Source of the DNA: a virus
Length of the DNA stretch: 11,070 nt
Reading direction: 5' to 3' (one strand)
Virus genome (UHGV): UHGV-0129235
Part shown: positions 1 to 11,070 of the stretch, one piece after another
How the letters are laid out: each line of letters begins with the position of its first letter
Numbering within the stretch: position 1 is the first letter of the stretch
The notes under the pieces: generated by a model
What the model was told of the DNA's origin: nothing
Database searches by the model: none
What the model saw: only the letters and a program-made list of their open reading frames with translations
Made by a program: the position numbers and the translations under genes

Positions 1-33
1 ACGGAATAGAGATAACACGAGGAGTGGTTAGAA

Positions 34-66
34 ATGGCTAAAGTTCTGGTGCTTTTACATAGCTAA
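34..66 (+). pseudogene. wrbA: Displaced native 5' end of wrbA (RBS + ATG + codons MAKVLVL) running into island DNA and stopping after 10 codons; left half of attB
   Basis: atg gct aaa gtt ctg gtg ctt (34-54) encodes MAKVLVL, which is the N-terminus of enterobacterial WrbA as I recall it; gaggag SD at 18-23; frame then reads LHS-stop in island sequence. The same codons resume at the right edge of the window. Confidence 0.55.
46..60. other. attL junction (host-island crossover region, shared core GTGCTTT at 49-55)
   Basis: ctggtgcttt|tacat: matches wrbA through GTGCTTT then diverges into island sequence; same 7-mer present at right junction 11016-11022. Confidence 0.5.
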
Positions 67-83
67 ACACGTACATTCAACTA

Positions 84-98
84 CCTGTTAATAACAGG
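84..98. repeat. Palindrome CCTGTTA-a-TAACAGG in attP-proximal left arm (candidate protein-binding site)
   Basis: 7-bp perfect inverted arms around a single central base, ~30 bp inside the attL crossover. Confidence 0.4.
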
Positions 99-435
99 AC
101 AATATCAGGTGAATCCCTATTCAATTTAAAGGCATTTCCCCAAGTATCTATGCAATCCTACACAGATTCTATGCAGTATCGGTATAGTCTCTTTTTAGTC
201 TAACTTATTGAAATATATAAAGAATCTGCGAAGTCTCTTTTCAGGGTAAACTGTATCGTGTTAGTCGTCCCTCTCTCGACTCCTAGAAAAGTGCTATATA
301 CAGGGCTATATAACGATATATAGATGTTTGGTCACCATACGTTACAGTTGCAAGAGATAACAATCAGCTATGTGAAAGTTAGGAAGTGATGGTTATAGTT
401 ACCCTCCTAAAATCTTCATAGCTCCTTCATAACCA

Positions 436-561
436 GTCTTAAAAGGACTTCCTTTTGAGACACTTTCAACGTAACGGTAGAATGCACCCTCAAGTAGTCT
501 CAAAAGGTTGTTTTTGGATTATGAGACAGCTAAACTTATGAGACTAACTTTTGAGACATCT
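436..561. promoter_or_regulatory. res-like recombinase binding-site cluster and probable autoregulated promoter upstream of the small serine recombinase
   Basis: 26-bp imperfect palindrome GTCTTAAAAGG-actt-CCTTTTGAGAC (436-461); third copy GTCTCAAAAGG (497-507); direct repeats TTATGAGAC (519-527, 536-544) and TTTTGAGACA (549-558); GTTTTTGGATTA (510-521) resembles the Hin/Gin-type half-site GGTTTTTGATAA; possible -35 ttgttt (508-513) / -10 taaact (530-535). Confidence 0.45.
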
Positions 562-572
562 AAGGGGGATGT

Positions 573-1121
573 ATGGCGGTGATTGGTTATTGCAGGGTAT
601 CAACACAAGACCAGACTGTAGACAACCAGAAACTACAGATAGAGAAGGTTCACAAGGTCGATAAATGGTTTATTGATGAGGCTGTCTCAGGAGCTACAAA
701 GGCCACCAGCAGAGATGGTTTTAGAGACATGATGAACTATGTAAGGTGTGACGATACGTTAGTTGTGGTAGCTATTGACCGTTTAGGGCGTAATACCGTT
801 GATGTGCTCTCTAACGTGGAGTCACTACAGACTAAAGGTGTGAGGGTTGTTTCTCTACGTGAAGGTTTTGACCTGTCTACACCAATCGGTAAAGCAATGC
901 TTACTATGATGGCTGGTTTAGCTGACCTTGAAAAAGACCTTATCAGTGAACGTAGAAAGGCTGGTATTGAACGTGCTAAAGCTGAAGGGGTTCACATGGG
1001 AAGACCTGTAAAAGCTTCTTCAGAGGCTGTACAGATGCTTATTTCACAAGGTAAAACGAGGTTGCAGATTCAGGAAGAGCTAGGAATCTCTAGAGCAACT
1101 TATTACAGACTTGCTAAATAA
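573..1121 (+). CDS. Small serine recombinase, resolvase/DNA-invertase family
   Basis: 182-aa ORF; N-terminal MAVIGYCRVSTQDQ catalytic-serine motif, DRLGR motif, C-terminal HTH (LGISRATYYRLAK); SD aaggggg 4 nt before ATG. Confidence 0.9.
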   Translation: MAVIGYCRVSTQDQTVDNQKLQIEKVHKVDKWFIDEAVSGATKATSRDGFRDMMNYVRCDDTLVVVAIDRLGRNTVDVLSNVESLQTKGVRVVSLREGFDLSTPIGKAMLTMMAGLADLEKDLISERRKAGIERAKAEGVHMGRPVKASSEAVQMLISQGKTRLQIQEELGISRATYYRLAK

Positions 1122-1805
1122 GTTACTGAATAGTTACATGGATGTGACTGATATTTGGCTTTTTTGCAAAGGGGGTCACATAGCTGGTGTGACGGGTACT
1201 TAGCAGCTACAGATTGATTGCAGATATTTTCGAAGATTATCGGGGAAGGGAAATGTAGAGGGGCTAGTCATTTTTTATAAAAAATTTAGAGGCTGGATAT
1301 TACCTGTATAGATTTTAACCAGTATAGAAGCCTGTATAACATGAGGGGTTCCTATGGTCACTATATCCCTCTTTCCCACTAAGGAAGCCTTAGCAGCACC
1401 TAGGCAACTATTGACTAAGGTCAACTTCATAAACTCAGAGTTAAGTTACCTTGAAAGATTCTACCAAGAAACTACACAGGTATTATTTAGTCTGACTGTG
1501 AAGAGATGTTTAACGGGAGGAAGAGAACCATGAAACCGAAGGTAGGTTCTATCTTAACAGTGACCGTAAGAAGAGAACTTGAGAGACAACTAAACAAACC
1601 TCTTAAGTAAAAGACAACACTCCAGAAAGAGTGTCTGTTTAACAGGCTTCTCAAAAGCTCTTAAGAAATCTGTTAAGTAGGGTCATGTGAACAATCTTAC
1701 CATTTTGTCAATGCTTTTGTCTTTGACCTAAATCAATAAAATGTATCGTTTGATGTGCTTTTAAACAAAATAGCTAAAGAATCTTTTTAGAGGGGCGCTT
1801 CGCTT

Positions 1806-2003
1806 GTGTCACATCCAATAATCAATGTCGGTCGTTATCATGGTGGTTCTGATGACTGGCGTACACCGTATCGTTTATTTCGTAACCTACACCGAGAATT
1901 TAGTTTCTCAATGGATGGTGCTGCAACTGAGCATGACGCATTGTTGCCACGGTTCACCGATGATATTCACAATCAATCATGGGTTGGTGAACGGGGTCTG
2001 TAA
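1806..2003 (+). pseudogene. N-terminal fragment of a phage Dam-type DNA N6-adenine methyltransferase (truncated remnant)
   Basis: 65-aa ORF with SDDWRTPYRLFRNLHREFSFSMDGAATEHDALLPRFTDDIHNQSWVGERG, matching the pattern D-x-W-x-TP...LF..L..EF.F..D.AA...NA....F...D.L.Q.W.G that I recall for phage Dam (Pfam Dam family); the expected downstream NPPYS catalytic region is absent in all frames. Confidence 0.4.
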
Positions 2004-2685
2004 AGATTGTTTAAGAAGTCGGTTTAGGGATTGGTAGATGATTCGGATGAAGCATCCTCATAACAATACCAATTAGAAGGTGGCTCTCCCTTTCTGGGGT
2101 TATCGCCTTGTATCTTAGTGAGTCCAGGAAGTTCTCTGTGAAGGGTCTTGTCAGTCCTTTATATTGGGTGATTACAACTTATTGAAAAATAAGAACTTTT
2201 AGAAGTTACTGTCAGATAGGTGAATACTTGATAGATACAGCTTTCTGGTTCTGTCAAGCTATTTTTTAATAGATAGCACAAAATGCTAAAGATACCCCTA
2301 TACCATCTCGTACAGGGGGTTTTGAAGGGAGTTTAACGGGGGTCTGTGTGGTTATCTGTTCTGGTCCTGTCCTTGAGGTCAAACGACCATTCACGACCAA
2401 ACAATCTGAACACGATAAACACTCTGACGATGAAATAGCGAAGTAATAAGCCTGCAATCAGCCCAACACCTCCACCAGCCCATACATCAGGTGACCCCAG
2501 CTCAGGAGGGAGATTTACCATTAAATTTCCTGTGTGCAATGCAATACCATGTGACATACATAGTTGATTCGGTTAGTTGGGCTTGTACCAACCCCTATCG
2601 AATAAACCTCATAGCCACGCCTTTATATTTTCCCTCTCTCATAAAACCATTATACCATAAATGTTAATAAAATGTTAAAAAATGC

Positions 2686-2714
2686 TTGACATTAGCCTTT
2701 GAAACTGCTAAGAT
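2686..2714 (+). promoter_or_regulatory. Sigma70-like promoter (TTGACA-17 bp-TAAGAT) for the four-gene operon
   Basis: Perfect -35 TTGACA at 2686-2691, 17-bp spacer, -10 TAAGAT at 2709-2714, followed by the motif ATTGTATATAT shared with the promoter at 4670. Confidence 0.5.
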
Positions 2715-2763
2715 TGTATATATAGTTAACAGGAAATTAACAATTACAAGGGCCAGCTTATGA

Positions 2764-3318
2764 ATGAACAACAAAGATTTTCAAAAATTTCTTGAAGAAT
2801 CCAAGAGACGCAACAGACACAACGGTTACAGCCACACAGACACCCCCACCAGCTACGAAGTCCCAACCTTTAGCAAATCCGAACGTAAGAACATTGAAGC
2901 GGTCATTCGTAGTATTACGCCACGAGACAGATTTATGCCAGCACGCAAAGAAAAAGAGAATACTTTAAAAACTTTCTTGATGGGCTTTGATTCTTACGAG
3001 CAATTACCGCCACGAATTGAAGATGTAATTATCGGTACTTGTCGCAGTTTTGGAAGGGATAACTATCACCGGAAAGTTTTCTATTTACTACGAAATCTTG
3101 ACAAAATTAGCTCAAGCACAGTAACAAATTATCTTCAGCGTCAAGCAACCAGGCTTAGCTATGAATTACCAAGCGATAAATATTGCGCTAACTTAGCCAC
3201 TATTTGCATGAAAGTTATTGAGACAATTAATCATCATGCGGAAGTGGGCAATATCAGCCTTACGATTAGTGAACCAGATTTCGAGTTTGACCCGTATTTA
3301 GTTACAGAGGAATTTTAA
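2764..3318 (+). CDS. Hypothetical protein (184 aa), first gene of four-gene operon
   Basis: Intact ORF directly downstream of promoter; abutted by next gene start (TAAATG); no family recognised. Confidence 0.6.
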   Translation: MNNKDFQKFLEESKRRNRHNGYSHTDTPTSYEVPTFSKSERKNIEAVIRSITPRDRFMPARKEKENTLKTFLMGFDSYEQLPPRIEDVIIGTCRSFGRDNYHRKVFYLLRNLDKISSSTVTNYLQRQATRLSYELPSDKYCANLATICMKVIETINHHAEVGNISLTISEPDFEFDPYLVTEEF

Positions 3319-3597
3319 ATGAATAAACACACATTAACCCGTATTTCAGAGGAAGCTTTTAACGGGCTTACCAGAATTAAACAAGCAACTAACTTACCTC
3401 ATCAAACTATTATGCAACTTGCAATTGCTAAAGAGGTCACTGAGTCGGATTTACTTAAATATCCAGTCTCTAAAGGTCGTAAGCACATCCGAATTAGTCA
3501 GGACGCTTTAGATACTTTGAAGGCACTTAACGGCTTTAAAATTGATATTGCCCGTCTATTGAGTCTTAAGATTCACAAGTTAGCGATGGAGGTTTAA
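3319..3597 (+). CDS. Hypothetical small protein (92 aa), possible DNA-binding regulator
   Basis: ORF with SD agagga 9 nt upstream; start abuts upstream stop; function not recognised (regulator assignment is a guess from size and a helix-like segment NLPHQTIMQLAIAKEV). Confidence 0.55.
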   Translation: MNKHTLTRISEEAFNGLTRIKQATNLPHQTIMQLAIAKEVTESDLLKYPVSKGRKHIRISQDALDTLKALNGFKIDIARLLSLKIHKLAMEV

Positions 3598-3812
3598 TGC
3601 TATGCGTTACCTTTGAATACCACACGGATAAAATGATTCGCCACATCTCCGACCTCCTGATTAAGGGAAACGGATTCGGTGACATCCATAACTCAAAAGA
3701 TATTTTCATTAAAGCCATTGGCCCAAATGAAGTACTGAAAACAGCAGTTAAACCGGAATGGTTTGAGCGTCACAAGATTGAATTAGGTTATTGGGGTGAG
3801 GAGGTTTTATGA
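3597..3812 (+). CDS. Hypothetical small protein (71 aa)
   Basis: SD ggagg 6 nt upstream; ATG overlaps upstream stop (TAATG), consistent with translational coupling. Confidence 0.55.
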   Translation: MLCVTFEYHTDKMIRHISDLLIKGNGFGDIHNSKDIFIKAIGPNEVLKTAVKPEWFERHKIELGYWGEEVL

Positions 3813-4096
3813 AACCTTGGCATGAAGATGTTAGACGATATTTTACAGAACACCTTATCTATGATGAATCCAGTGATTCCCTGTGCTGGTCTGATGGAGA
3901 GTCAGTCACGATAAATACCGACGACTACGGCAACAAAACATTTAATATAGGCCGATATACTTTCTACGTGAAATATGTTGTCTGGTTCCTTTATCATGGC
4001 TATCAATCCAACAAGCAAATTATCCATCGAAATGGTAACAGAGCCGATACCAGACCAAAAAATCTTATGCAAGTCCGAGACTTTAAGAGAAATTAG
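3809..4096 (+). CDS. HNH endonuclease-like small protein (95 aa)
   Basis: SD gaggagg 5 nt upstream; ATGA start/stop overlap; C-terminal YHGYQSNKQIIHRNGNRADTRPKNL resembles the HNH_3-type motif (hydrophobic-H-x-N-G-x-x-x-D-x-R-x-x-NL) of phage HNH nucleases. Confidence 0.5.
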   Translation: MKPWHEDVRRYFTEHLIYDESSDSLCWSDGESVTINTDDYGNKTFNIGRYTFYVKYVVWFLYHGYQSNKQIIHRNGNRADTRPKNLMQVRDFKRN

Positions 4097-4250
4097 AAAA
4101 ACAGCTTCTCAGACGCTCTCAATCGCATTCTAACGCAAAAAACTACCTTATTTTAGTGGGTAATACCACTGTACAGGCTACCCCTGAAAAAGACTGTTTA
4201 GCTCGTTACAGAGCGATTGAGGAGGTCTGGTAAAAAGGAGATTTTAAGAA

Positions 4251-4580
4251 ATGAGAGAATTAAACTTCCCACTACAGATTTTTATTGATACCGACACCGC
4301 CATGATGATTCAGGCTTTCGCTGATGTAGGTGTTAGCATTGACTTTGATAAGTTGTTAGAGTTAATGACTGATAATGCGGAAAGCATCTCTGACTTTATT
4401 CAGTCGGTGGAGTTTAACGAGCCTCGAATGATGCTACCAATTAAAGACAGCAACATGAAAAGATTGGTTATCGAGCAAACGAACAAATTCAGCGTTAGCC
4501 CTGAAAGATATCTCAAGGCAGCTATAGCAATTTTGTACGCTGACAATATTTTGGTGACGGATTCGAAGGTGGTGCATTAA
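4251..4580 (+). CDS. Hypothetical acidic protein (109 aa)
   Basis: ORF with SD aaggag 10 nt upstream; net acidic composition; no family recognised. Confidence 0.6.
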   Translation: MRELNFPLQIFIDTDTAMMIQAFADVGVSIDFDKLLELMTDNAESISDFIQSVEFNEPRMMLPIKDSNMKRLVIEQTNKFSVSPERYLKAAIAILYADNILVTDSKVVH

Positions 4581-4645
4581 TGGAATTGGTGATTATCTGT
4601 TTTGTATTGATTGGCATGATTGCAGGTGCATCTATTAAAGTATAA
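4580..4645 (+). CDS. Possible 21-aa hydrophobic single-TM peptide (MELVIICFVLIGMIAGASIKV), translationally coupled
   Basis: ATG overlaps stop of upstream gene (TAATG); almost entirely hydrophobic; too short for the ORF track; speculative. Confidence 0.25.
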   Translation: MELVIICFVLIGMIAGASIKV

Positions 4646-4669
4646 ATGTTACCAATCTGTTAAAAGCTG

Positions 4670-4698
4670 TTGACAAATAACCTTGAGCATGACATAAT
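4670..4698 (+). promoter_or_regulatory. Sigma70-like promoter (TTGACA-17 bp-CATAAT) sharing the ATTGTATATAT motif with promoter at 2686
   Basis: -35 TTGACA 4670-4675, 17-bp spacer, -10 CATAAT 4693-4698, immediately followed by TTGTATATAT. Confidence 0.5.
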
Positions 4699-4901
4699 TG
4701 TATATATGAGGATAGTCTTCTATCCGAAGTCTATAGGGAGAGCAATTCTCCTTGAATTAAAATATTAATCATCTCTACATCGATGATAACTATATTCTGA
4801 TTGGAAAGGTGCAATGCTTTTCGTCATGGCCTTTCAGTTCGGTCTGAGAGGTCATCTCGAAAAGTGCTTAATCATTCATTCATTGAACCCTTTACAGCTT
4901 T

Positions 4902-4930
4902 GCCCTAATCATGAGTTAGGGCTTTCTTTA
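4902..4930 (+). terminator. Terminator-like hairpin (GCCCTAA-7 nt loop-TTAGGGC + TTTCTTT)
   Basis: 7-bp perfect stem with U-rich tail; lies in the leader between promoter 4670 and gene 5145. Confidence 0.4.
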
Positions 4931-4998
4931 AGAGTTTTTAAACAGAGCTTTTAAAGAAAGTTTTTCCTGAAACTTCGTTAACGTTAAAGCAAACCTTC

Positions 4999-5034
4999 AA
5001 AGCCCTTCACAGATTATGTTTAGGGCTTTTTTCA
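4999..5034 (+). terminator. Terminator-like hairpin (AAGCCCT-15 nt loop-AGGGCTT + TTTTT)
   Basis: 7-8 bp stem followed by T-run; sequence-related to hairpin at 4902 (both contain TAGGGCTTT and a downstream AGCTTTTAAA). Confidence 0.45.
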
Positions 5035-5144
5035 GCTTTTAAAAAGCATACTTGGCAAACCACCTTTTAAGTCTCTTCTAAGTTTAGATAGGCTGTCAGG
5101 TGTGCTTTTTAAAAACTGAATATTACTTAGAAGAGGAAAATGAA

Positions 5145-5852
5145 ATGGAAAATCTATATATTAGCGGTAGAAAGGTTGATAGCTTCGGTGACTGGTCGCC
5201 ACAGACTGAACATCCAGCTATCACTATTCAGCGTAAAGAACACGATGAAAGAATTAAGCTTGAGCAATCGTTAAAGATGTCACCAAAGGTAATTTCCTTT
5301 GTGTCTCCTGAGCCTCAAGAAATGCCAGATATCTGCAAAAGTGAAGCACTATTTAATCTTGAGCGTGAATATTACCCACAGTTAAAAGCACAGCGTATTA
5401 AACTTGATGACGCTTACAGCAAAGTTACCCTGATGCAATCAGCTATTGAGCCGTCAGAATTTGAGATTCAGGATGAATTGTCACAGAAGCCGTATGTTTA
5501 CTTCACATACGAAGATAATGATGGTTTTGGTACTTTTCAAGAAAACGTCACAGACGTGATTAGTAGTCTTCCTGCTGGACATCGAATTGTGAAGATGGTT
5601 AAAGCTTCAAGAGGTGCTGGTCAGTTTATTTACATGACTAATAAGAGCGATGAAGAACTCTGTGAACTTGCCAGACAGAACATCTTGGCATCACGTAACA
5701 AGCAACTTGAAAATGTTAAGTTGTATCTCTCAAGAGAGCTTCAGGCTATGAAAGAGCTTGTGAAAGAATATGAAGATGCTAAGAAGATTGCTATGCAGGC
5801 TGATATTGAGCAGCTTACGAAGATTTCTCAGAAATATGCAAAGGCTATTTGA
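5145..5852 (+). CDS. Hypothetical protein (235 aa; C-terminal coiled-coil-like region)
   Basis: ORF; preferred start ATG 5145 (MENLYISG) with SD gaagagga upstream, rather than GTG 5100 of the ORF track; no family recognised. Confidence 0.6.
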   Translation: MENLYISGRKVDSFGDWSPQTEHPAITIQRKEHDERIKLEQSLKMSPKVISFVSPEPQEMPDICKSEALFNLEREYYPQLKAQRIKLDDAYSKVTLMQSAIEPSEFEIQDELSQKPYVYFTYEDNDGFGTFQENVTDVISSLPAGHRIVKMVKASRGAGQFIYMTNKSDEELCELARQNILASRNKQLENVKLYLSRELQAMKELVKEYEDAKKIAMQADIEQLTKISQKYAKAI

Positions 5853-5870
5853 TATGGTGTGAGGTGATGA

Positions 5871-6080
5871 ATGATTGAAGAACGTTTAGAGACTATTCGG
5901 TCTGTTTGTGAAAACTTAAAGTTACAAACTAAGCCAGCCTTAAGAATTAAAACCAAACATCAAATTATCACCTCACGCAAACCAAAAACACGCAAGATTC
6001 CAAAGTGGTGTATCGACCGTATCCCTTCCGATGCTCAAATTATAGGTGAAACGGAACTACATTATCTTGTCAGGCATTAA
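5871..6080 (+). CDS. Hypothetical small basic protein (69 aa)
   Basis: ORF with SD gaggtga just upstream; Lys/Arg-rich (RKPKTRKIPK); followed by terminator. Confidence 0.5.
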   Translation: MIEERLETIRSVCENLKLQTKPALRIKTKHQIITSRKPKTRKIPKWCIDRIPSDAQIIGETELHYLVRH

Positions 6081-6102
6081 AAAAGATTGGTTGGGTGAAT
6101 AC

Positions 6103-6142
6103 GGGGAGAGATTAACCTTAATTGGTTGGTCCTCCCCTTTTT
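6103..6142 (+). terminator. Rho-independent terminator candidate (GGGGAG...CTCCCC + TTTTT)
   Basis: GC-rich 6-bp stem with structured loop and 5-T tail, right after the 69-aa gene stop. Confidence 0.5.
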
Positions 6143-6177
6143 CGTATATGAACACTTAAAGAGGTGAAATATGAACA

Positions 6178-8355
6178 ATGGCACAGTTTAAAGTTGATAG
6201 TTTTATCGTTGAGCTAGGCTTCAGCGAGAACGTTATTAAGGGCTTGCAAAGAGTTGAAAAGGCAGCTTTGCAGTCAGCACAAAGAATTGAACGTAATTTG
6301 AATAGAGCGTTTAAGGTCGATACCAAGCAACTTGACAGCAATCTGACAAGTTCTTTAGGGCAACTTGAAAGGAAGTTTAATAAGACCTTTGACAAGATTG
6401 AACAGAGAGCAAGAAACACAAAAGTTTTCCGTTTCACAAGTCAGGTTAATGACGCTATTAATCCTCCAAAACAACCAAGACAGCCACGAATTAGCGGAAA
6501 CAGAGCAATCACAGCAGCTTATTCAGCGAATATGAGCAAGCTAAAAGGCTTTGACCCTATTTTGCAGAAATACATCAAATCTCAGTTTTACGGGCTATCT
6601 GCTAAAGCTGGGTCAATGGATAATTCAAAATTCAATGAGAAGCTGGCTCAGTTAAACACTTCAGTCAGAGAAGCAATTGCTAAAGCCAGAGGTCATACAT
6701 CCACCAGCATTAACAATACAAGCGACGCATTTAATAATCTTGCAAGCAATGCGATTAAATTATCTGGTGCATTTTACTCTGTGATGGGTGCTCTTAACGC
6801 TTACAAGGCCATTATGAATGCAGGTCTTAAACGAGATTCCGCACAGAGAGCCGCTAAGTTTGTACTTGGTGATAAAGCATCTGAGGCTGAAACATTTATC
6901 AGGGGACTGGCTGACAAGACAGGTCTTAATATCTCTGAAGGGCTATCAAGCTACGCTAAGTTTGCAGCAGGTGCTCAGGGTTCTATGTCACAGGAACAGA
7001 CACAGGAGCTATTTGGTAATGCAACGGCTATGAGTCGCTTAATGGGGCTTTCTAACGACGAGCTAAACGGCATTTTGAAAGCTTTTGAGCAGATGGCGAG
7101 CAAGGGCAAGATTCAGGCTGAAGAGCTTCGTGGTCAGTTAGGTGACCGTATGGCTGGTGCATTTAAACTATTCGCTGAAGCATTGGGTATGACTGCTACA
7201 GAGCTTGATAAAGCGATGAAAGACGGGAAGATTTTAAGTAGTGATACTCTCCCTAAAGTCGCTAAACAGATGGGCTTGATGATTGATAAAGCGGGTGGCT
7301 GGGCTGAAGTCGCTAAGAGCACTCAGACAGCTTTAGGGAAACTGGCTAACAACAGGGATGATACGATGGTGAAAATCTTCTCAGGTTCACAGGATGAGCT
7401 AAATGGCTTCTTATCCAGTCTGAGTAGCCTGCTTAGTGAAATGGGGATGAGTTCTTCTATCGCTGGTGATGCTATCGGTGGACTTATCGACATGCTTAAA
7501 GCTGGTGTAGATGATATTCGCGTATTCAATAACACCATGGAAGGCTGGATTTTACAGACTAAGAAGTTCTATTACAGCCTTGATGACACTAAACGAAAAC
7601 TACTTGATGAAGTCGGTGATGGTTTTATCAATTTTGTCAAAGGTCTTGCTATAGCGTTATCTGCAAAGACGCTATTCAGTGCTACTACAGGGGTTATGAA
7701 CCTGACAAGAGCAATCACAACGTTAGGTACAAGAGCTAATCAGGTGGCTGGTCAGGTAGCTACTGGTAAAGGTGGTGGAAAACTGAAAGGTGTAGCTGGT
7801 GGTGTAGGTAGTGCTCTTGCAATTGGTTATGCTGATGACGGTTATGAAACAGCGTTAGCATTAGCTTCAATGATTCCACAAATCAGAGGTGTCACTCTTG
7901 GTTTATATGCATTGAAGAAAGCACTGGATTTTATGAATCAGGAAGTAGTCAAAAACGCTAATATGCATCCATCTGGGGTAGGTGTGGGTAGTGACTTTAA
8001 TCCTGTGTATTCTGGTGACCCTAATAAACCGAATGTGATTAACGAAGGATGGAGTAGAATTTTTAGTTCAATGGGTGAATTGTTTAACAATGCCACAATG
8101 AATATTGCAAGATTCAATCATCCAGAATTGATTACCATGAAACAAGATGCATCATTAACGAGCACTGACATCCAAAATCTAAGAGATGAAATTAGTGCTT
8201 TGAGTAAACGTATTCAGGAGCCAGTGAAAGTTTCACTTGGTGGTGAAGTTGCCATTAAACCAGATGAAACCAGCTTTATGACCTTTAGCAGTAATATCTA
8301 CGACCAATATGCAGAAGCTACGTTATTAAGTTCATCATTCCCAGAAGATGATTGA
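6178..8355 (+). CDS. Tail tape measure protein-like (725 aa)
   Basis: Internal segment GLSNDELNGILKAFEQMASKGKIQAEELRGQLGDRMAGAFKLFAEALGMTATELDKAMKDGKILSSDTLPKVAKQMG matches the conserved tape-measure domain as I recall it; coiled-coil-rich N-terminal third; Gly-rich hydrophobic C-terminal segment; SD agaggtg 9 nt upstream. Confidence 0.75.
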   Translation: MAQFKVDSFIVELGFSENVIKGLQRVEKAALQSAQRIERNLNRAFKVDTKQLDSNLTSSLGQLERKFNKTFDKIEQRARNTKVFRFTSQVNDAINPPKQPRQPRISGNRAITAAYSANMSKLKGFDPILQKYIKSQFYGLSAKAGSMDNSKFNEKLAQLNTSVREAIAKARGHTSTSINNTSDAFNNLASNAIKLSGAFYSVMGALNAYKAIMNAGLKRDSAQRAAKFVLGDKASEAETFIRGLADKTGLNISEGLSSYAKFAAGAQGSMSQEQTQELFGNATAMSRLMGLSNDELNGILKAFEQMASKGKIQAEELRGQLGDRMAGAFKLFAEALGMTATELDKAMKDGKILSSDTLPKVAKQMGLMIDKAGGWAEVAKSTQTALGKLANNRDDTMVKIFSGSQDELNGFLSSLSSLLSEMGMSSSIAGDAIGGLIDMLKAGVDDIRVFNNTMEGWILQTKKFYYSLDDTKRKLLDEVGDGFINFVKGLAIALSAKTLFSATTGVMNLTRAITTLGTRANQVAGQVATGKGGGKLKGVAGGVGSALAIGYADDGYETALALASMIPQIRGVTLGLYALKKALDFMNQEVVKNANMHPSGVGVGSDFNPVYSGDPNKPNVINEGWSRIFSSMGELFNNATMNIARFNHPELITMKQDASLTSTDIQNLRDEISALSKRIQEPVKVSLGGEVAIKPDETSFMTFSSNIYDQYAEATLLSSSFPEDD

Positions 8356-8367
8356 TTTAACGGTGTT

Positions 8368-8493
8368 CTACGTGAATAAAGCAAAGTTAATACCCACACC
8401 AAAAATTATTTTTCACGTAGCTCACGCTTAACAGAGAAAATACTTATATATCAAAGGCTTGGTTAAAAATGATTAAAATACACTAAGCCTTTG
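8368..8493. repeat. Two perfect 9-bp inverted repeats with long spacers (CTACGTGAA/TTCACGTAG and CAAAGGCTT/AAGCCTTTG) in the intergenic region between the tape measure and the next gene
   Basis: 8368-8376 vs 8412-8420 and 8452-8460 vs 8485-8493; the second right arm ends 7 nt before the SD of the downstream gene. Confidence 0.4.
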
Positions 8494-8511
8494 AAATCAA
8501 AGGAGAATTTA

Positions 8512-9300
8512 ATGATTTACTCTAATCAGATTCGTTACAGTGGCAAAGATGGTATCTATTTCCACTTAAGAGATAATGTAGATGCCTTCTTAACCTTATC
8601 AGCTACTGAACAGATGGAGTTTGACAGCCCTATGCAGGTGACTACACAGAACATGCAATCAGGGCAAACCGTCACAGATAATGTGCAAAGAGCACCCAGA
8701 ACAATCACTATTAGTGGTGTCGTTGTAGTTGGTTATGAAGGAAGTTTATTACTAACTCGTCAGGGTCAATTAGTAGAAAACTTCATCGACACTCTGGAAA
8801 ACTGGCGTGACCAGAAGCAGATTATTTCGGTCATCTGTAAAGACGGTATCAAGATTGATGATTCCATTATTACGAGCTTTAAAGCCTCTAAAGATGTTAC
8901 TATCTCTAACGGTCTTCGTATCCAGCTAACTTTTCAGGAAATTAACTTTAAAGCTATTGTTGGTCAGACTGATATTTCTGCTGCGACTGGAAAGGCCGCT
9001 ACTACAAATGACGGTGGTGTGACCAGTAAGAAGAATGCAGGTAACGTGACCACTGAACGCAATAACGCGCCTATGCTATCGTGCAAAGAGCTAATGAGTA
9101 TTAACGATGTATCCGGTTACGCTCCAGCTATCAGAAATGATATTCTCGATGCTCAGATTAAATGCAATAAGGCTTGGAAGCTGGACTATTCAGACTTAAC
9201 AGAAGCTGAAAAAACCAACGTCACCAATGCTAACAGTAACGCTGGTCGGGTAGCTTCAAAGCTTAAAAAGTACTCAGTGAACCCTCACAAAAAATACTAA
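8512..9300 (+). CDS. Hypothetical protein (262 aa), possibly a minor/distal tail protein
   Basis: ORF with SD aaggag 6 nt before ATG 8512 (preferred over TTG 8491); position immediately after the tape measure and a weak pattern resemblance to small minor-tail proteins; function low confidence. Confidence 0.55.
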
Positions 9301-10940
9301 GCGTCCACCTCTTCCATATCACCAGCAGGATAAATCCTTGTTACTGGTTCACCAAAAATAAGCATATCATCTAATGACTGCATCTCATCGGTTGCTTCTT
9401 CAAGCGTTAAGGTGTGGTCATCTTTACCATCAAGAGGAAAACCACGAATCATATTTCCATTGTGAAGATATATATCCACCAGCTTTTCATTACCAGAAAC
9501 AACAATCTCTTTCACCAGACGCTTAATAATAATCTGGGCTTCAGTTCTCCCCTCTACAGACTCCATATCAAGACCGCTTAAATCCAAGCTTGATACAGAT
9601 TTTACCCTCGCCTTTTCTCGTGATAACTGAACTATCAGTTCATCTTTTTCTTCCTGTTTAACCCGTAGTGCTTCTTGAATCTGAGTGATGTTAGGAAGCT
9701 GTATCAGCGTCTCAGTGAGTTTTTCCAGTTCACTATCAACGGTGTTTAGTCTGCGTTGCAGTTCATCTAATTTAGCTGTATCGGTTGCTTCATCGTGTAG
9801 CTGTGACAGTTTGCTGAACAGACGACTACAAAGCTGTGTATCAAGTAACTTTCTGGACACTGTACCGTAACTACAACGGGATTCTTTATTACCATTGCAA
9901 CGGTAAGTACCTTGATAAACGGGTTTACGTATCCCTGTAGGAGTCATTACAAGCCCACACTTACAACGGATAAGCCCCTTCAGTATGTTCACATATAGCC
10001 AGTGTTCACCGCTGGATGTTTTCCCCTTCCCTGTTTCCTCTAACAGTTGCTGTACAGCGTAAAACTTAGAGTCTGTGACAATCTGAGGATAGAACCCTTC
10101 AATTTCTTCACGTAACACTGTTTTACGGTCTTCTGTAGAAATCTTAGCGGGAAGGTAACCTAATACACTTCGTGAAGTCAGGATGTGTTTAACGCTTAAT
10201 GCTGACCAGTTGCCATCCGGTTTCTTAGTCTTGGATATTCTGACCTTACGCTGATTAATGGTCGGGTAACCTTGTTCGTTTAGCCATTTACAGATAGCAA
10301 ACATCGACATACCAGAAAGACGCTTGTCATAGATGATATTCACCAGTGACGCTTTATCTTCATCAACGATGTAGTGTGAACCGTCTTCTGATAGCTCTAA
10401 CCATCCGGGGGCTTGCTTACCCATAGGCTTCTTAAGTTCTCTTGCAAGCTGTGTTTTATGGTTCCAGACCTGAGCTATACGCTTTTGCTTAACAAGAGAT
10501 TCTTGGTGTGCTCTCTCAGCTATGATGATGTGCTTAATCAACTTCACAGGGTCTGTTAATGCTGATTTGTCGTAGAGTTCACCATCTCCCAGAGTCAGTA
10601 TAGAGACTCCTTTCCTCAGTATCTGCCTGACATCATCTATAGCTGTGTCGATATCAGCCCTACTGAAGCGGTCAAAGTTCTCTACAACAATCAGGGAACC
10701 TTCTGGAATAGCCCCAGACATAACATTTTCAAACATACGTCTGAAGTCAGAACCTTGAGCCTTATGTTGCTGGTGAAAACCAGATTTACCCTTATCAACG
10801 TATCTGTGAGCAGGAAGAAGGTAATAATCGTTTTTGTGCTTAGAGTAGAAAGCATCAATGAGGTTTGTTTGCCGTCTTAAGGAGTCTCCTGAGTCTTGCT
10901 CTTTAGTACTCCACCTGATGTATGTCACTAGCAGCTTCAT
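9297..10940 (-). CDS. Large serine recombinase (integrase)
   Basis: 547-aa ORF; N-terminal resolvase-type catalytic domain ([14 protein letters not shown]), extended recombinase domain, Cys cluster CKCG...CNGNKESRC consistent with a zinc ribbon, coiled-coil segment; start lies 51 bp from the hybrid wrbA start at the island edge. Confidence 0.92.
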
Positions 10941-10991
10941 ATCTTCGGACTATGCTTATCTAAGTGGTTCATTGAACAGGAGAACAATGAT

Positions 10992-11070
10992 ATGAGTGTT
11001 AAGGCAAGAATACTAGTGCTTTATTATTCCATGTACGGACATATTGAAACGATGGCACGCGCAGTCGCTG
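10992..11070 (+). CDS. wrbA: WrbA NAD(P)H:quinone oxidoreductase, island-regenerated hybrid 5' end (partial, runs off window)
   Basis: [26 protein letters not shown]; from LVLYYS onward this equals the WrbA N-terminus as I recall it; SD aggag 10 nt upstream is supplied by the island. Confidence 0.85.
11013..11027. other. attR junction (island-host crossover region, shared core GTGCTTT at 11016-11022)
   Basis: ctagtgctttattat: island sequence up to the core, then wrbA codons YYSMYGH continue. Confidence 0.5.

Follow-up and report, generated by a model that had tools for sequence, protein, structure and literature searches.

An 11-kb integrative island in wrbA from a family of possible satellites of virulent Felix O1-like phages

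The 11,070-nucleotide (nt) stretch of DNA from the virus genome UHGV-0129235 (the window; coordinates are positions in the window unless another record is named) carries an integrative element of 10,967 bp that is complete and competent for excision and was inserted by a recombinase that joined attP to the attB of wrbA across the sequence GTGCTTT. Related elements of ~11 kb are present at at least four gene-internal sites, and all members examined carry tape measure and tube-initiator genes, in the order found in virulent Felix O1-like phages. We lean towards the view that the family consists of satellites (hyperparasites) of these virulent phages (Ounavirinae), because its members are conserved, mobile and excision-proficient, have no recognised capsid genes and are tied by two structural genes and a copy of a genome end to one virulent lineage.

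Insertion into wrbA and excision

Positions 1–55 and 11016–11070 of the window are contiguous in wrbA of Escherichia coli K-12 MG1655, with one copy of a 7-bp core in common. The empty site in MG1655 reads ...gaaatggctaaagttctggtgctttattattccatgtacgga..., and the insert is therefore 10,960 bp in length (56–11015) and lies within codons 6–8 of wrbA. An initial annotation, made from the window alone, had placed a complete island in the first codons of this gene and had suggested a comparison with an island-free wrbA; MG1655 has exactly the empty site that it predicted, with the core covering GTG CTT T of codons 6–8. The host arm of attL (1–55, plus strand) comprises the native wrbA upstream region, ribosome-binding site (RBS) and codons 1–7, is identical to MG1655 and ends with the attL copy of the core (49–55, strand not assigned). 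From position 34, this edge reads ...gaa ATG GCT AAA GTT CTG GTG CTT TTA CAT AGC TAA, and the native wrbA start now opens a 10-codon stub reading frame (MAKVLVLLHS, then stop) that runs to position 63. At the other end of the island, which would measure 10,967 bp as a circle with a single copy of the core, the attR core (11016–11022) is followed by native wrbA from codon 6 onwards (11016–11070, plus strand). The MAKVLVL stub on the left, the RBS and ATG with the MSVKARI fusion on the right and GTGCTTT at both edges are all present as first described. The expectation that the island is more AT-rich than the wrbA flank also holds: its G+C content is ~39%, with values of 37–45% in the island against 51–58% in the flanks. 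Strain cM8a has a copy of the island at 99.7% identity, placed between ymdF and wrbA.

The island encodes a large serine recombinase (integrase) of 547 amino acids (aa) on the minus strand (9297–10940). The protein has an N-terminal YIRWSTKEQ motif and matches PF00239 (6.3e-11), PF07508 (5.6e-20) and the zinc ribbon PF13408 (2e-4, below the Pfam cut-off); its closest solved relative is PhiC31 integrase (8e-10). The Resolvase and Recombinase domains, the sub-threshold zinc ribbon and the similarity to PhiC31 integrase support the serine-integrase mechanism that had been proposed for this site. A crossover inside GTGCTTT, proposed at the same time, is upheld as far as the 7-bp core and its matching empty site go, the exact exchanged dinucleotide not being readable from the letters. 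When attP is rebuilt from the left part of attR and the right part of attL, the best two-fold symmetry is centred on the GT of the core (12 of 24 positions).

Excised forms are represented in public data. The predicted attP junction, GGCAAGAATACTAGTGCTTTTACATAGCTAAACACG, has exact matches in three metagenome contigs, an in silico version of the outward PCR that had been suggested for the detection of a circular form. One of these, ERZ506742 NODE_633, is a SPAdes contig of 11,233 bp with a 55-bp terminal overlap, which makes it a circle; it encodes an integrase that is 98% identical and contains no host DNA. The junction is also present in ERZ506766 NODE_2791 (3,764 bp) and in OOBX01000469.1 (23,009 bp, of which 6 kb was read); the latter is about two island units long and may be a concatemer. 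A tonB-type relative with a different integrase was found as a circular contig of 11,141 bp (126-bp overlap), the junction of which is the exact attL × attR recombinant of integrated yciI/tonB copies. The circular contigs are relatives of the window island (integrases 98% identical, otherwise ~70–91% identity) and not exact copies of it. The attP junction and the circular contigs in metagenomes thus indicate that natural excision occurs in relatives of the island that have the same att arms. Another contig of ~11 kb with family proteins (L012) was rejected as a circle, as it is an integrated copy cut at the island borders.

Integration does not simply interrupt wrbA, as the island supplies a new 5′ end for the gene (10941–11015, plus strand), with AGGAG at 10978–10982, ATG at 10992 and the codons MSVKARIL. 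It contributes ...AGGAGAACAATGAT ATG AGT GTT AAG GCA AGA ATA CTA, followed by the core. Because the attP arm next to the integrase carries the RBS, the ATG and ARIL codons that mimic the native AKVL, integration rebuilds an in-frame wrbA and leaves the native promoter and start on the stub. The mimicry suggests that the hybrid WrbA retains the pattern of the first β-strand and gains three residues. Among wrbA islands with an overall identity of ~91%, conservation of the att arms is 100%; the hybrid WrbA is annotated in three strains as an identical protein (WP_000111568.1), and the rebuilt wrbA of cM8a is annotated by PGAP as a 606-nt gene.

The initial annotation had also placed WrbA expression under the control of the island. 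This is correct in its geometry, because the upstream DNA, the RBS and the first seven codons are island-encoded; as for the promoter, a consensus σ70 scan of 10600–11070, upstream of the rebuilt wrbA, found none. The sequence CTATGCTTA at ~10952–10960, within the island-made upstream region, resembles the σS −10 consensus, a lead only and not a result. The tonB-type relative inserts at the tonB start codon (loci L028, 1960–2080; L029, 9180–9282; L031, 2000–2120). Its core, CAATGACCCTTGA, lies on this codon, and the element rebuilds ATG ACC CTT GA (the ATG and three codons) with an island-encoded upstream region. The family thus has a second target gene whose 5′ end is replaced.

That wrbA is a known site of prophage integration, as had been stated for this locus, is true of VT2-Sakai, but the attachment core of VT2-Sakai is annotated 23–28 bp further into the gene. 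The island therefore uses a site other than that of the Stx phages, and this distance rules out a common attachment site. The Stx2-phage core (VT2-Sakai 2248–2253) and the island core (49–55) are nevertheless close neighbours within wrbA. Occupation by the island or by an Stx phage destroys or displaces the site of the other, and competition for the wrbA locus in Shiga toxin-producing E. coli (STEC) is possible.

Tail genes and a terminus-like block

We compared the island with 50,697 phage records and used the 85.8-kb garuso genome as the Felixounavirus reference. The wrbA flank aside, the island matches only Ounavirinae. Its only structural genes encode a tape measure protein (725 aa; 6178–8355, plus strand; PF20155, phrog_4036 at 6e-94) and a Dit-like tail tube initiator (262 aa; 8512–9300, plus strand; PF21821, phrog_3721), and these are also the only island genes that match garuso, in which they occur in the same order as genes 118–119. 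A segment of 510 nt (8536–9045) is 90–92.5% identical in DNA to its counterpart in over 200 Felixounavirus genomes, among them Felix O1, wV8 and garuso, and the tube initiator matches PDB 9ndy_A, ‘Tube initiator protein (gp018)’, at 2.7e-112. The G+C content of Felix O1 is ~39%, the same as that of the island (PMC3185647). We rejected a Felixounavirus prophage or remnant, because only two genes and short non-coding blocks match garuso and the genus is virulent.

Both tail proteins are mosaics. In the tape measure, residues 1–40 are 82% identical to the Felixounavirus protein and residues 281–360 are 62–67% identical, with 12–32% in the rest, and the C-terminal motif LLSSS[FY]PE is retained. 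In the tube initiator, residues 41–160 are 95–97% identical to the phage protein, compared with 32–37% over the last 70 residues (the C-terminal extension). In the structure of phage Bas63, gp20, gp21, the tube initiator gp18 and a C-terminal fragment of the tape measure gp17 together make up the baseplate hub; the tube initiator is tube-like, with a C-terminal extension of ~100 residues (PMC12609058). Given this composition and the mosaic pattern, the island encodes two of the four hub components and is phage-like exactly where the tube and hub of a helper must fit.

Over the initiator segment, the phage alleles (~90–92%) fall within the spread of the island alleles (71–93%), indicating that islands and phages have exchanged DNA repeatedly. 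Over its full length, the initiator of the tonB-type island has 78–80% identity to the phage protein, and it matches 301 phage records; all but one distant match among 27 sampled rows of these are Ounavirinae-type phages. A 2024 survey reported a 544-bp exchange between phage vB_EcoM_DE7 and E. coli chromosomes, where PHASTER found no prophage, and left the locus uninterpreted (PMC11069274). We found that vB_EcoM_DE7 matches the tube-initiator segment of the window island.

The second tie to these phages is non-coding. Direct terminal repeats have been reported by PhageTerm for Felixounavirus (PMC11737134). NBEco004 and NBEco005 were deposited with identical sequences at both ends (628 bp and 651 bp, respectively), and the boundaries of the repeat agree in the two genomes: ...GGGCTACC/AAGCAG... 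and ...AAATGCTA/GCCCC..., with the slash at the boundary. The terminal repeat is dense in TGTTAAG-type motifs (19 per kb in garuso) and is part of a gene-free region of 1.7 kb with convergent transcription units on either side. The island has a non-coding block (1107–1318, plus strand) that is homologous to the Felixounavirus region across one of these boundaries. Across the complete garuso genome, the one best match of this block (49909–50123) spans the boundary and scores 49.7 bits (z ~10); 200 dinucleotide shuffles gave 26.9 ± 2.3, with a maximum of 34. The block is conserved in all 12 islands examined, which represent four integration types and were aligned with three phages. Short blocks common to islands and phages flank the phage end on either side (GATATTT, TTYTGCAAAGGGG, GGGYTAC..AGCAG, CAGATATTTT, TTTTATAAAAA and TGTAYAG), and the island counterpart of this end is at ~1200/1201. 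We regard 1107–1318 as a candidate packaging or terminus site.

Two further features recall the phage repeat. A cluster of the motif YTSTTAAS, which saturates the phage terminal repeat, has five matches in ~120 bp (1553–1677), and a 51-bp hairpin element (2025–2075, plus strand) is 100% identical to positions 311–361 of the 628-bp terminal repeat of NBEco004. There are 307 occurrences of this hairpin across 188 E. coli genomes; all lie in unannotated DNA, and a genome with the hairpin usually has two copies. One island (L009) has two direct copies (5001–5052 and ~7272–7323), one of them beside attL.

Family distribution and other island features

Among 5,426 complete E. coli genomes, 550 (~10%) contain related DNA, with up to four copies each, always in the chromosome and never on a plasmid. 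Family members at wrbA, yecE, the yciI/tonB junction and mdtG have one architecture and gene order and different large serine recombinases. Conservation is highest at 4100–9050, a stretch that includes the gene for a 109-aa protein, a non-coding region, the genes for a 235-aa and a 69-aa protein, the tape measure gene and the N-domain of the initiator. The reading frames of the tape measure, initiator, 235-aa and 109-aa genes are intact at 72–93% nucleotide identity. Named homologues of a 184-aa protein of the island come from Salmonella, Shigella, E. fergusonii and Citrobacter, which are Ounavirinae hosts.

At the left end, a conserved non-coding block (117–350) is common to family members with different integrases and is therefore not an att arm. 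It is followed by the gene for a small serine recombinase of 182 aa, which is of the invertase/resolvase type (573–1121, plus strand; PF00239 at 9e-42, phrog_125). Five copies of TGAGAC, in both orientations, lie directly upstream of this gene (456–557) and may be binding or regulatory sites of the small recombinase. A Dam-type N6-adenine methyltransferase gene (1806–2003, plus strand; PF05869) is truncated here, and a pseudogene according to PGAP, but is intact in other family members. A conserved 62-aa open reading frame (ORF) on the minus strand (2333–2521) encodes a hydrophobic protein, the membrane character of which is read from its sequence. The same region (2333–2726) contains a terminator and a divergent pair of near-consensus promoters (2649–2726) that faces an operon of small genes. 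The 62-aa protein might serve as a toxin, in exclusion or as a regulatory switch.

The operon (2764–4096, plus strand) encodes proteins of 184 aa, 92 aa and 71 aa and a 95-aa HNH_3 endonuclease (3809–4096; PF13392 at 1.8e-8). The first three had no family match in Pfam, PHROGs, NCBIfam and PADLOC scans, and these scans recognised no capsid, portal, terminase, sheath, tube, lysis or replication families in the island. The 109-aa protein (4251–4580, plus strand) belongs to the family core, being conserved in at least 11 of 13 members, and likewise has no family match.

Between the genes for the 109-aa and 235-aa proteins are 520 bp of non-coding DNA. This region contains the best σ70 match in the window (4670–4698; TTGACA-17-CATAAT with TG), which does not vary among 16 family members. 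Downstream of it lie ~220 nt of potentially structured RNA or leader, ending at a terminator (4902–4922). The hairpins behind the promoter are conserved, with compensatory changes. We consider the whole segment (4670–4930, plus strand) a candidate small RNA or leader upstream of an operon for the 235-aa and 69-aa proteins, the tape measure and the tube initiator, and it recalls the RNA-based control of satellite P4. An Rfam scan returned only a chance microRNA match. A 27-nt inverted repeat (5031–5120) stands directly before the 235-aa gene and has compensatory variants in the family (AAAAAGCA/TGCTTTTT versus ATAGAGCA/TGCTCTAT).

The 235-aa helical protein and the 69-aa protein (5145–6080, plus strand) are also part of the family core; a GTG start at 5100 would extend the former to 250 aa. 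RefSeq and PGAP call the 235-aa protein (5145–5852) a ‘transposase’ in hundreds of genomes. We reject this label, as no Pfam, NCBIfam or PHROG family backs it and the predicted structure consists of long helices. The AlphaFold model of the 235/250-aa protein is of moderate confidence, with a predicted local distance difference test score (pLDDT) of 65.7, a fold search gave no match at E ≤ 0.001 and comparison with phage tape-measure chaperones revealed no similarity.

A proposed satellite cycle and its alternatives

If the islands are satellites, infection by a Felix O1-like phage would trigger excision, for which the directionality factor could be supplied by the phage, as in the Vibrio PLE. 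The excised circle would then be amplified, and the phage terminase would package island DNA through the copy of the terminal-repeat boundary (~1107–1318), probably filling full-size heads with concatemers. The tape measure and tube initiator of the island, phage-like at their contact regions, would enter the baseplate hub and tail core of the helper, where they would either build particles suited to the island or spoil those of the phage. Each of these steps, from the excision trigger and amplification to packaging and the role of the tail proteins, is a prediction from sequence. We suggest, more tentatively than the satellite identity itself, that this may be the first family of satellites to exploit virulent coliphages and Salmonella phages, with packaging by a terminus copy, a swap of the tail core of the helper and new starts for host genes. 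A literature search for satellites together with Felix O1, Felixounavirus or Ounavirinae found no paper, although subscription journals were mostly outside the search and a prior description is possible.

Several observations weigh against a satellite. No replication initiator, primase or capsid-size factor was recognised among the island proteins, and we have no explanation for how the island would benefit from a tape measure and tube initiator of its own. Many family copies are disrupted by insertion sequences. The terminus-like block is only ~60% similar to the phage terminus, and a database-scale blastn search of this block against phages gave no match; the similarity is visible only in direct comparison, where the shuffle test backs it. 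The 51-bp hairpin is present in only three phage records, all Felixounavirus and within the terminal repeat, and could be DNA passed from island to phage. A third terminal-repeat-like motif (5060–5085, in the loop of the 27-nt inverted repeat) proved not to be above chance, as 3 of 150 shuffles equalled its best genome-wide match, which itself lies outside the terminal repeat. No attP junction patterns were found in IMG/VR viral contigs. The IMG/VR loci recovered through the 250-aa protein have taxon-style identifiers and are probably isolate genomes; read in this way, they provide no evidence for packaging. In O111:H8 (L035, NZ_CP077465.1, 4001–6716), the left 2.7 kb of the island at yciI/tonB is joined to lambdoid genes: the small recombinase, terminus-like block and small ORF abut the prophage genes DUF1627 and Ea22-like. 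This junction is a chimera or a deletion product, for which we have no explanation.

The main rival is a mobile anti-phage defence island, which we judge unlikely. The tail proteins would then act as poison subunits in the baseplate hub of an infecting Felix O1-like phage, so that its particles come out dead, with possible further protection from the HNH nuclease and the small membrane protein; the island would never be packaged and would spread by other means. The restriction of phage likeness to contact regions (tape measure residues 1–40 and the C-terminal motif; tube initiator residues 41–160), the presence of an HNH endonuclease and a hydrophobic 62-aa ORF and the lack of any sign of packaging in viral contigs are all consistent with such a role. 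However, a PADLOC scan of 10 island proteins matched no defence model, and defence leaves both the conserved terminal-repeat-boundary block and the 51-bp identity unexplained. As interference and transfer usually coexist in known satellites, this alternative is partly a sub-case of the satellite explanation, and defence and satellite may be faces of the same biology.

It is more doubtful that the island is an integrative element with no working tie to Felix O1-like phages, persisting through its recombinase alone and carrying tail genes and terminus-like DNA as passenger fragments of past infections. Most of its genes have no known function, disruption by insertion sequences is frequent and the survey that saw the 544-bp exchange between phage and chromosome found no prophage there (PMC11069274), as might be expected of such an element. 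Yet conservation across varied integrases and sites is greatest in a core made up of the promoter/RNA region and the tape measure, initiator, 235-aa and 109-aa genes, the reading frames of which remain intact at the identities given above, and the terminus-like block is conserved in 12 of 12 islands; passenger DNA would not be so retained. Least probable is a decayed remnant of a larger temperate prophage that formerly occupied wrbA, as Stx phages do. Although wrbA is a classical prophage site, the island has phage tail genes and its left module is joined to lambdoid genes in O111:H8 strains, the Stx-phage core is offset by 23–28 bp and Stx phages contain no island DNA beyond the wrbA flank. 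The tail genes, moreover, are of the strictly virulent Ounavirinae type, and the same compact 11-kb layout at four sites, together with circles of 11.0–11.2 kb, argues against random decay.

As a satellite, the island would most resemble known elements of Vibrio. The Vibrio PLE is reported to be integrated by a large serine recombinase (PMC6002521). Like the PLE, the island is a chromosomal element of 10–20 kb with a large serine recombinase and a strictly virulent myophage partner, and it carries a nuclease and lacks capsid, terminase and lysis genes. The two differ in that there is no sequence relationship, with no recognised PLE core gene among the protein-family matches of the island, and in that the island has no recognisable replication initiator or capsid scaffold and integrates inside the 5′ ends of genes, which it rebuilds. 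Its hosts are Escherichia, Salmonella, Shigella and Citrobacter, as opposed to the V. cholerae/ICP1 system. PLEs are not known to encode a tape measure and tube initiator copied from the helper, as the island does with those of its presumed helper. The island may work like a PLE without being a member of that family.

The PICMIs (phage-inducible chromosomal minimalist islands) of Vibrionaceae are described as small, reduced satellites of virulent phages that have no capsid-remodelling genes and are packaged as concatemers (PMC10803314). The island is similar in its minimal content, its virulent helpers and the concatemer packaging proposed for it; unlike the PICMIs, which lack tail genes, it has two. 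PICMIs integrate next to fis and not within genes, and have other core proteins. The P4-like, PICI and capsid-forming PICI families resemble the island in host range and, for P4, in size (~11 kb), and capsid-forming PICIs share with it structural genes that are homologous to phage genes. These families use temperate helpers and tyrosine integrases, whereas the island integrase is of the serine type, and we found no Pfam or PHROG match in the island to their hallmarks (primase-helicase, alpA, sid/psu/delta, small terminase and capsid module). The Stx prophages VT2-Sakai and 933W have the same target gene but are full-size lambdoid phages of 50–65 kb that split wrbA rather than rebuild it. In SPbeta-type prophages and many gene-end islands, a serine integrase restores the reading frame of the target. 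The island is like the SPbeta-type elements in its short core, asymmetric att arms and integration inside coding sequence; it differs in replacing the 5′ end, so that the transcription and translation signals and the N terminus are island-encoded. The island family thus belongs to none of the PLE, PICMI and P4/PICI families and is apparently undescribed.

Salmonella typing, food biocontrol and phage therapy all rely heavily on Felix O1-like phages. An element that is present in ~10% of E. coli and recombines with these phages, and maybe parasitises or blocks them, would affect the prediction of host range and the design of therapy. If our interpretation is correct, satellites of strictly virulent phages would extend from Vibrio to the best-studied bacterium, in which experiments are easy, and a tape measure and tube initiator supplied by a satellite would be a new mode of virion hijacking, unlike that of any described satellite. 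The integrases, with defined attB/attP pairs in wrbA, tonB, yecE and mdtG, are ready site-specific tools. Finally, the replacement of the 5′ ends of wrbA and tonB indicates that such elements can rewire the control of a host gene without destroying it.

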